A DNA stretch of 64,000 nucleotides from Candidatus Spongiihabitans sp. (GCA_965261335.1 OZ253450.1:506705-570704), one strand, 5' to 3'; positions 58,651 through 59,294 are shown, counted from the first letter of the stretch. Program-made: numbers and translations. Notes: generated from the sequence alone by a model not told the origin.

Positions 58651-59294
58651 TGAGAATTGAGAATTGAGAATTGAGAATTGAGAATTGAGAATTGAGAATT
58701 GAGAATTGAGAATTGAGAATTGAGAATTGAGAATTGAGAATTGAGAATTGAGAATTGAGAATTGAGAATTGAGAATTGAGAATTGAGAATTGAGAATTGA
58801 GAATTGAGAATTGAGAATTGAGAATTGAGAATTGAGAATTGAGAATTGAGAATTGAGAATTGAGAATTGAGAATTGAGAATTGAGAATTGAGAATTGAGA
58901 ATTGAGAATTGAGAATTGAGAATTGAGAATTGAGAATTGAGAATTGAGAATTGAGAATTGAGAATTGAGAATTGAGAATTGAGAATTGAGAATTGAGAAT
59001 TGAGAATTGAGAATTGAGAATTGAGAATTGAGAATTGAGAATTGAGAATTGAGAATTGAGAATTGAGAATTGAGAATTGAGAATTGAGAATTGAGAATTG
59101 AGAATTGAGAATTGAGAATTGAGAATTGAGAATTGAGAATTGAGAATTGAGAATTGAGAATTGATAATTGATAATTGATAATTGATAATTGATAATTGAG
59201 AATTGATAATTGATAATTGATAATTGATAATTGATAATTGATAATTGATAATTGATAATTGATAATTGAGAATGGACAATGGTAAATTGAAAAC
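58651..59294 (+). repeat. heptanucleotide microsatellite, 92 units: (TGAGAAT)~73 then TGATAAT/TGAGAAT variants
   Basis: Counted from the sequence: pure TGAGAAT from 58651 to 59161, then 5 TGATAAT, 1 TGAGAAT, 9 TGATAAT, 1 TGAGAAT, and GGACAAT, GGTAAAT, TGAAAAC. It starts 8 nt after the adhesin stop codon. Confidence 0.95.

Follow-up and report, generated by a model that had tools for sequence, protein, structure and literature searches.

A hyper-expanded heptanucleotide array behind the stop codon of an autotransporter adhesin gene: probably a microsatellite that varies by slippage

The stretch of DNA analysed here (64,000 nucleotides of Candidatus Spongiihabitans sp., GCA_965261335.1 OZ253450.1:506705-570704; hereafter the window) contains the gene of a very large surface protein, an adhesin, and close behind its stop codon a 644-bp tract of the heptanucleotide TGAGAAT and its variants. 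The question raised by this locus is what such a tract is: a coding sequence, a curved or terminating structure, an arm of a mobile element, a functional element of the transcript, or a repeat that has merely expanded. A preliminary description of the window had considered several of these roles. In our analysis the tract is probably a hyper-expanded, stop-anchored heptanucleotide microsatellite, which changes length by slippage and whose length as such is likely to be neutral, and which is neither coding nor curved nor a terminator.

Parsed in register from its first base, the array comprises 92 units, and Tandem Repeats Finder run on the window reported 89.3 copies of period 7 with 99% matches (58649-59273, score 1152). 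Both results agree with the approximately 73 perfect and 19 variant units first counted, and the start of the array was likewise recovered at the eighth base past the TAG stop of the adhesin gene. In related contigs the spacer behind the stop is GAAT, and TAGGAAT there reads as a degenerate first unit. Seventy-three consecutive identical heptamers cannot arise by chance, and the array is a long simple sequence repeat (SSR) in the ordinary sense, with a head-to-tail unit in the range of 1-11 nt repeated far beyond chance length. The plus strand of the array has no cytosine and a content of guanine plus cytosine (GC) of 29%, compared to 46% for the window. It carries TGA in all three frames, while the minus strand is free of stops, and the three overlapping open reading frames (ORFs) called on the latter had already been described as artefacts. 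This holds, since unit number and unit type shift between strains in 7-nt steps, which no reading frame could tolerate; the three ORFs are therefore untranslated, minus-strand coding is excluded, and the calls should be dropped from the annotation.

The evidence for expansion comes from the same site in related strains. The RNase E of the window is 100% identical to the protein on ERZ26693861:ctg138339_507x_l (1.12 Mb) and 66% identical to the homologue in Candidatus Spongiihabitans (Gammaproteobacteria, Arenicellales). The former contig represents a close strain, with 98.7% identity to the window over 13.9 kb and more divergence in the adhesin region, and a 33-kb contig of 3x coverage from sample ERZ26051151 agrees with the window without a mismatch (100% identity) over 2.8 kb. 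The junction '...ACGGTTTTAG GAAATAT' ('GGTTTTAG GAAATAT') is common to three contigs, whose flanks are 97.8-99.8% identical. At this junction the window has 92 units; ctg138339_507x has 22 (TGATAAT x7, TGAAAAT x2, TGATAAT x5 etc.), none of them TGAGAAT; and ctg118557_70x has five, i.e., TGATAAT x4 and TGAGAAT x1. A further contig, ctg137142_66x (L330), with a beta-domain 98% identical to that of the window, has about 22 units of other composition, namely TGAGAAT x6 and TGAAAAT x15. Paralogues and orthologues at 72-92% identity carry 3-9 units directly past the conserved stop, one of them TGAGAAT x3 and another four mixed units, and the homologue on a circular Ca. Spongiihabitans chromosome is followed by TGATAAT, TGAGAAT, and (GGAGAAT)7. 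A scan of JGI metagenomes for the junction between gene end and array gave no match. The position of the array is conserved, but the number of units (3 to 92) and the dominant variant are not, and the arrays are built as runs of identical variant units. Their distal ends have kept older components: GGACAAT GGTAAAT are common to ctg138339 (L121/L336) and ctg137142, only the terminal TGAAAAC is retained in ctg118557, and the last degenerate unit was found, with small variation, in three related contigs. The pattern is the classical footprint that slipped-strand mispairing and local amplification would leave in a microsatellite. Mere slippage expansion had been listed among the possible explanations, and the counts of 5, 22, and 92 units across strains speak for it.

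We propose that the 3' flank of this autotransporter gene family regularly carries a short TGANAAT array in Ca. Spongiihabitans-like Gammaproteobacteria. Such an array would gain and lose units by slipped-strand mispairing or unequal recombination, and a point variant arising in one unit could be amplified locally into blocks of identical units; in the present strain, the G-variant block would recently have run to 73 perfect copies. Transcription probably makes the tract an unstructured, C-free tail of the adhesin mRNA with TGA in three frames. As repeated DNA, the arrays are also a substrate for recombination, and the inverted arrays upstream of the gene have mediated a 73-bp inversion, described below. 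The length of the array is probably without function, because near-identical strains have 5 or 22 units. What the sequences show directly is the anatomy of the tract, its polymorphism among strains, the anchoring at the stop, the inversion, and the absence of predicted structure or curvature; slippage, transcription together with the adhesin, and a neutral length are inferred. The features of the locus are collected in Table 1.

Table 1. Coordinates of the heptanucleotide arrays and associated features in the window.
Feature	Position	Strand	Remarks
Heptanucleotide array	58651-59294	+	92 units, 644 bp, parsed in register from 58651
Perfect TGAGAAT x73 block	58651..59161	+	probably recently expanded
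Mixed block, 16 units	59162..59273	+	TGATAAT x5, TGAGAAT x1, TGATAAT x9, TGAGAAT x1
Degenerate units GGACAAT GGTAAAT TGAAAAC	59274..59294	+	old distal end of the array; units recur in related contigs
Adhesin stop TAG (58641-58643) and 7-nt spacer GAAATAT	58641..58650	+	
Artefactual overlapping ORFs (ILNSQFS)n	58564..59307, 58617..59300, 58640..59449	-	stop-free strand
MITE-like mosaic module (miniature inverted-repeat transposable element), 134 bp	59299..59432	.	25-nt arms, 80% complementary, 84 nt apart; begins CCGTCATTCCTGC, has poly-G run
Short array AATTGAAAATTGAAAATTGAGAA, 23 nt	51480..51502	+	left arm of inverted pair upstream of adhesin
73-bp segment with hairpin CCGTCATTCCTGCGGAAGCAGGAAT	51503..51575	.	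exact reverse complement in related strain
Nine-unit array (TGAAAAT/TGAGAAT/TGATAAT on minus strand)	51575..51641	-	perfect 23-bp inverted repeat with 51480-51502
Surface protein (adhesin), 2303 aa	51732..58643	+	DUF285, ~10 He_PIG Ig-like repeats, C-terminal autotransporter beta-domain
Four-unit array TGATAAT GGAAAAT TGAGAAT TGAAAAT	40313..40341	-	sense, overlaps 3' end of MGMT-like ORF 40304..40660(-)

Two physical roles suggested for the tract did not stand. Phased AATT tracts, three units making about two helical turns, had been expected to curve the DNA. In a dinucleotide wedge model that used Trifonov parameters and 210-bp tiles of the window, the twist of one unit sums to 238.7 degrees and three units do make very nearly two full turns, but the bends of the units cancel every three units because the twist of 7 bp is about 239 degrees. 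The curvature predicted for the array was 0.09 degrees per turn, the lowest of all tiles, against 24 for a phased A6 control, 7.7 for a phased AATT control, and 6.5 for shuffles. The model thus contradicts the expectation and, with these parameters, gives the array none of the bends phased at ~10.5 bp that characterize intrinsically curved DNA. As for the RNA, (UGAGAAU)n folded no better than its shuffles (z = 0.07) with an unpaired centroid, and the antisense (AUUCUCA)n had a minimum free energy of 0; the sense RNA is C-free and the antisense G-free. No terminator-like hairpin was present in 58644-59560, the nearest one being at 59575-59592, and the adhesin transcript probably enters the tract because no such hairpin stands between the stop and 59575. 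The proposed terminator role is contradicted by the lack of hairpin and U-tract together with the unstructured RNA, and the array is no intrinsic (Rho-independent) terminator, which would have a GC-rich hairpin followed by a U-tract. None of the covariance models of Rfam 15 matched the window at gathering score, relaxed searches giving only chance-level matches, and a tRNA scan found nothing. Nor is the array a contingency SSR of the phase-variation type, i.e., a repeat within an ORF or promoter whose changes in unit number would alter the frame or the strength of the promoter, as it lies wholly downstream of the stop.

The unit itself is not unusual, and arrays of it are spread across phyla. 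In GTDB contigs, one genome per species, exact (TGAGAAT)3 occurred at at least 120 loci, while we estimate that about 0.3 matches would be expected by chance in 596 Gb. Among the matches listed, record titles assigned approximately 54 to Bacteroidota, 15 to Cyanobacteriota, 13 to Acidobacteriota, and 10 to Bacillota, and others to Planctomycetota, Chloroflexota, Cloacimonadota, Desulfobacterota, Spirochaetota, Pseudomonadota, and further groups, at least 12 phyla; the arrays in these listed matches have 3-17 units. Viral contigs held (TGAGAAT)3 at 61 loci, compared to 15, 6, and 6 loci for three control heptamers of equal base composition, a four- to tenfold difference. Exact (TGAGAAT)8 was found in more than 120 metagenome contigs, which is a lower bound. 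Array length among the metagenome matches listed was 8-36 units, and 31 of the 124 arrays stand at contig ends, which suggests that longer arrays break short-read assemblies. The array of the window, with its 92 units, is longer than any among the matches listed.

Position relative to genes was analysed in all three collections, among the matches listed, with a crude ORF caller, which keeps the longest ORFs that do not overlap, with a minimum of 100 aa. When the gene 5' of the array was on the TGAGAAT strand, the array started between -31 and +12 nt of its stop in 37/61 cases from genomes, 50/68 from metagenomes, and 16/30 from viral contigs. Pooled, 103 of the 159 sense cases (~65%) were anchored in this way, compared to 20 of 137 antisense cases (Fisher p = 3e-19). 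The stop of many genes is the TGA of the array itself, the protein ending in ...ELRIEN*. The large array of the window obeys the same rule, being on the sense strand and 7 nt past the stop. Two trivial explanations were rejected. Firstly, the anchoring is still seen when only ORFs of 200 aa or more, or only loci with a GC of 0.42 or less, are counted, as would not be expected if the crude ORF caller, or false ORFs in GC-rich sequence, had produced it. Secondly, the anchoring does not follow simply from TGA in all frames, as the published GGGAATC arrays are stop-free and show the same rule (PMC4692102). Convergent inverted pairs of arrays were frequent (51480-51502 / 51575-51641 in the window; L030, L040, L057, L061, L062, L080, L083, L088, L104, and L108). 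In addition, a group of GC-rich (53-59%) phage contigs from IMG/VR (L122, L147, L133, L143, L161, L178, and L138) has a 3-5-unit array in nearly every intergenic gap, always in one orientation. The genes of these phages, whose strands were checked with Pfam, are on the opposite strand, so that the mRNA contains (AUUCUCA)n; in many cases this repeat stops 0-11 nt short of the next ATG, with no Shine-Dalgarno sequence.

Tandem heptamers have a history in several bacterial groups. Short tandemly repeated repetitive (STRR) sequences with the units CCCCAGT, TTGGTCA, and CAACAGT are known from cyanobacteria. They resemble the present array as tandem heptanucleotide arrays in intergenic DNA and differ in unit and taxon. 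STRR heptamers of Calothrix PCC 7601 are among those cited in PMC4692102. The preliminary description aptly likened the array to heptameric repeats known from cyanobacteria and some large sulfur bacteria. Two sets of published repeats share features with it. The first set consists of GGGAATC arrays in Xanthomonas and GGGGA(T/C)T arrays in Nostoc PCC 7120, with 2-26 units and a mode of four (Rehm et al., 2015; PMC4692102). Downstream of ORFs these arrays lie 0-50 bp from the stop, or overlap it, on the coding strand, and upstream of ORFs they lie on the non-coding strand; they form 70-75 convergent inverted pairs, vary markedly in length among close species, and are transcribed, and the authors identified no function and found no regulatory role (PMC4692102). 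Shared with the arrays described here are the tandem heptamers, the mostly intergenic location, the anchoring at stops with the purine-rich strand as the coding one (103/159 cases and the array of the window), the frequent convergent pairs, and the variability in length and sequence between close relatives. Read in the phase GAGAATT, our unit agrees with GGGANTN at four of its five conserved positions, and the variant TGGGAAT (= GGGAATT) of many loci matches all five. An intact G-tract is missing, as GAGAATT has no run of three or more G and only variants such as TGGGAAT elsewhere fit. The present arrays thus differ from those of Rehm et al. in lacking the G3-4 tract, and hence a G-quadruplex, in having TGA in every frame, in reaching 92 units, in the low GC of 29%, and in occurring in many phyla and phages instead of two lineages.

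The second set, TAACTGA repeats, was described from marine Beggiatoaceae, Cyanobacteria, and Bacteroidetes, with stops in all frames and an open reverse strand (MacGregor, 2015; PMC4679880). Mostly these are 2-6 copies ending 1 nt before start codons in forward orientation, and for rare long arrays, which reach 43 copies, a role in favouring rearrangement was suggested; the repeats were proposed as translational elements (PMC4679880). All-frame stops on the forward strand, the open reverse strand, a predicted unstructured RNA, the overlap of some arrays with ORF ends, and a patchy distribution (Gammaproteobacteria, Cyanobacteria, Bacteroidetes) are common to both. The tract of the window differs in its unit and in standing past a stop with no downstream gene; it neither shares the TAACTGA unit nor ends about 1 nt before a start in place of a ribosome-binding site. 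According to Mrazek et al. (2007), as cited in PMC4679880 and PMC4692102, heptanucleotides are the most over-represented of the long prokaryotic SSRs, for which slippage was proposed. Judged by these citations, our array is the same in kind as those SSRs (1-11 nt units) and differs only in degree, with 644 bp and 73 perfect copies. In Haemophilus influenzae, (TGAAAGA)13-38 located ~100 bp upstream of the adhesin genes hmw1A/hmw2A modulates their expression (Dawid, 1999, as summarized in PMC2651432). A variable heptamer SSR beside a very large adhesin gene is common to both systems, and the small nine-unit array upstream of our adhesin (~90 nt before the ATG) shares the geometry; the 644-bp array differs in being downstream of the stop, where it alters neither promoter spacing nor frame. 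No report of the TGAGAAT unit from bacteria was found in the literature searched, under six rotations or reverse complements. The tract is a record-length array of a kind, the heptamer SSR, that has already been described.

Several observations weigh against reading the tract as a slippage microsatellite of neutral length. Slippage explains changes in length but not the anchoring at stops across phyla, and this anchoring may point to some role of the ancestral array in its short form. The excess of TGAGAAT x3 in viral contigs over the control heptamers (4-10x), and phages with an array in one orientation in nearly every gap, look like selection. The array also resembles a series of tandem sigma-70 promoters. 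Finally, the exact copy number of 92 is that of the assembly.

One alternative, which we regard as unlikely, is that the array works in cis as an element of the transcript. It would provide a stop in three frames and a C-free sense tail proof against Rho, while the G-free antisense RNA would load Rho and block antisense transcription, and at ORF boundaries the element would lie close to ribosomes. The anchoring at stops on the coding strand, found in three collections and also for GGGAATC/GGGGAYT (PMC4692102), argues for it, as do the composition and the lack of structure of both RNAs, the phage arrays in nearly every intergenic gap that often end 0-11 nt before start codons, and the translational role proposed for TAACTGA repeats (PMC4679880). 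Copy numbers of 5-92 among near-identical strains mean, on the other hand, that a function cannot hang on the present length; Rho loading is deduced from composition only, and Rehm et al. saw no regulatory role in their repeats (PMC4692102). A wider form of this idea is speculative, and we give it little credence: TGAGAAT-type, GGGAATC/GGGGAYT, and perhaps TAACTGA repeats might form one cross-phylum, phage-borne class at ORF boundaries, in which arrays would open at a stop on their purine strand and close at a start on their pyrimidine strand, acting on ribosomes or Rho through unstructured C-free/G-free RNA and without a G-quadruplex, the 92-unit tract being a runaway copy. What the comparison does bear on is the explanation based on G-quadruplexes. 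These are not required for the positional rule, because the AT-rich TGAGAAT follows it; that a heptamer unable to form such structures obeys the stop/start rule in many phyla and phages weakens that explanation and suggests instead that heptamer arrays with purine/pyrimidine asymmetry have some property in common at gene boundaries.

The neutral microsatellite has also to be set against the earlier suggestion of an expanded arm of a mobile repeat, taken here as a MITE-like element that came in by transposition. The link between arrays and module is real. The 13-mer CCGTCATTCCTGC has exactly two copies in the window, at 51513 and 59301, each beside a heptamer array, and modules of the CCGTCATTCCTGC type flank the upstream arrays as well. 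Junctions between array and module, '...GAAAATGACGGCTAGGTTTTGA...' and '...CCAACATCCGTCATT...', recur in L106, L121, L330, and L335. The two exact module copies, the recurring junctions in relatives, the 25-nt imperfect inverted repeat, and the surroundings rich in insertion sequences (IS) speak for such an element. Other observations speak against mobility of the array as an arm. Array and module are found behind the same stop in all strains and paralogues and move with the 3' end of the gene, with no independent insertion; neither a target-site duplication nor an empty site was found; and TGAGAAT arrays of other phyla occur without the module. We regard transposition as an improbable origin of the array. 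The poly-G run of the module past the array is itself a second hypervariable tract, with 11, 8, and 7 G in three strains (window 59394-59404; L121 ~700-712; L330 ~4233-4240).

The promoter-like appearance was evaluated with a sigma-70 consensus scan, which gave 89 overlapping matches in the array against 4.8 expected, counting consensus matches only. TTGAGA-N17-GAGAAT agrees with the consensus at 9/12 positions and TTGATA-N17-GATAAT at 10/12, recurring every 7 bp; 14 TGATAAT units score 10/12, and the upstream arrays score as promoters as well. A tandem promoter array firing rightward, or a protein sponge titrating RNA polymerase or a regulator, might be built in this way, and TGATAAT resembles the half-site of the 7-1-7 box of Fur. 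We consider such a function very improbable, as no gene stands downstream in that direction: the next ORF past the array is on the opposite strand, 586 nt off, and the next plus-strand ORF is an ISL3 transposase fragment ~1 kb away. Moreover, arrays are common in Bacteroidota, in which the promoter consensus is generally known to be different, those of the phages are antisense to the genes, and the likeness is one of consensus only. That the array length is an assembly artefact, inflated or invented, is hardly credible: although coverage is just 3x in the one contig found to be identical to the window, and although look-ups of exact proteins with the trpD product, coiled-coil protein, full adhesin, and transposase fragment of the window gave no match, the array stands inside an unbroken 64-kb sequence and has unique flanks, arrays occupy exactly this site in five further contigs, whose names give coverages of 38x to 507x, and short-read assemblers collapse or break at repeats instead of extending them, in line with the metagenome arrays at contig ends.

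A different kind of change was found on the other side of the gene. On the adhesin sense strand, the nine-unit upstream array consists of (ATTCTCA)-type units and ends ~90 nt ahead of the ATG. Between the inverted arrays, ~160 nt ahead of the start of the adhesin gene, lies the 73-bp segment. Its counterpart in ctg138339 (L121 7230-7450) is its exact reverse complement, apart from a 40-bp duplication that ctg138339 carries there. As the intervening 73 bp is reverse-complemented and the outer flanks are colinear, the inverted heptamer arrays have mediated an inversion between strains that are ~99% identical, and the recombination hot spot suggested earlier has its evidence in this inversion. 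The small upstream array has nine units in both strains compared. No promoter-like site was found within the 73-bp segment in either orientation, and a promoter switch of the fimS type is accordingly unsupported. The hairpin CCGTCATTCCTGC-GGAA-GCAGGAATCC at 51511-51538 resembles the neisserial dRS3/NIME repeat (ATTCCC-N8-GGGAAT). Near such hairpin modules, an IS110-family transposase was observed in L332.

The last 400 residues of the adhesin constitute an autotransporter beta-domain, as close homologues carry PF03797. The length of the protein differs between strains, with 2303, 2053, and 3260 aa (window 51732-58643; L336 8271-10960; L335 8163-10960), and tandem repeats of 264-267 bp in 55199-56720 encode He_PIG domains. 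With a 3' array of 5-92 units, a gene encoding 2053-3260 aa, and an inverted segment upstream, the adhesin locus is a hot spot of repeat-driven change. Upstream of the adhesin gene, a CCDC90-like coiled-coil gene (50989-51435, minus strand) has 33-bp internal tandem repeats and encodes 148 aa, compared to 177 aa in the sister strain. On the Ca. Spongiihabitans chromosome (L106, 8 kb), seven short arrays flank tandem copies of the coiled-coil gene, and each of these cassettes (L106 1780-5885) is bordered by heptamer arrays and the junction TGACGGCTAGGTTTTGA.

The region of the window is rich in IS copies and short mosaic repeats. Copies or fragments with 91-98% identity (DUF772/DDE_Tnp_1, ISL3) were located at 8978-12945, 38910-40206, 45574-46718, 59690-60884, and 1751-3251/12963-14022, and several autotransporter paralogues in relatives are interrupted by IS insertions (L330-L332). 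IS elements thus seem to be expanding in this genome. The rule of stop codons was also obeyed by the array at 40313-40341, at the end of the MGMT-like ORF. This ORF reads through the four units, and the second of them, being GGAAAAT and not TGAAAAT, removes a would-be in-frame stop. Tandem repeats within ORFs were observed elsewhere in the window, namely a 144-bp unit x3.8 at 23231-23776 (ORF 23216..24316) and a 57-bp unit x3 at 36600-36802 in an SseC-like ORF (36190..37608, minus strand).

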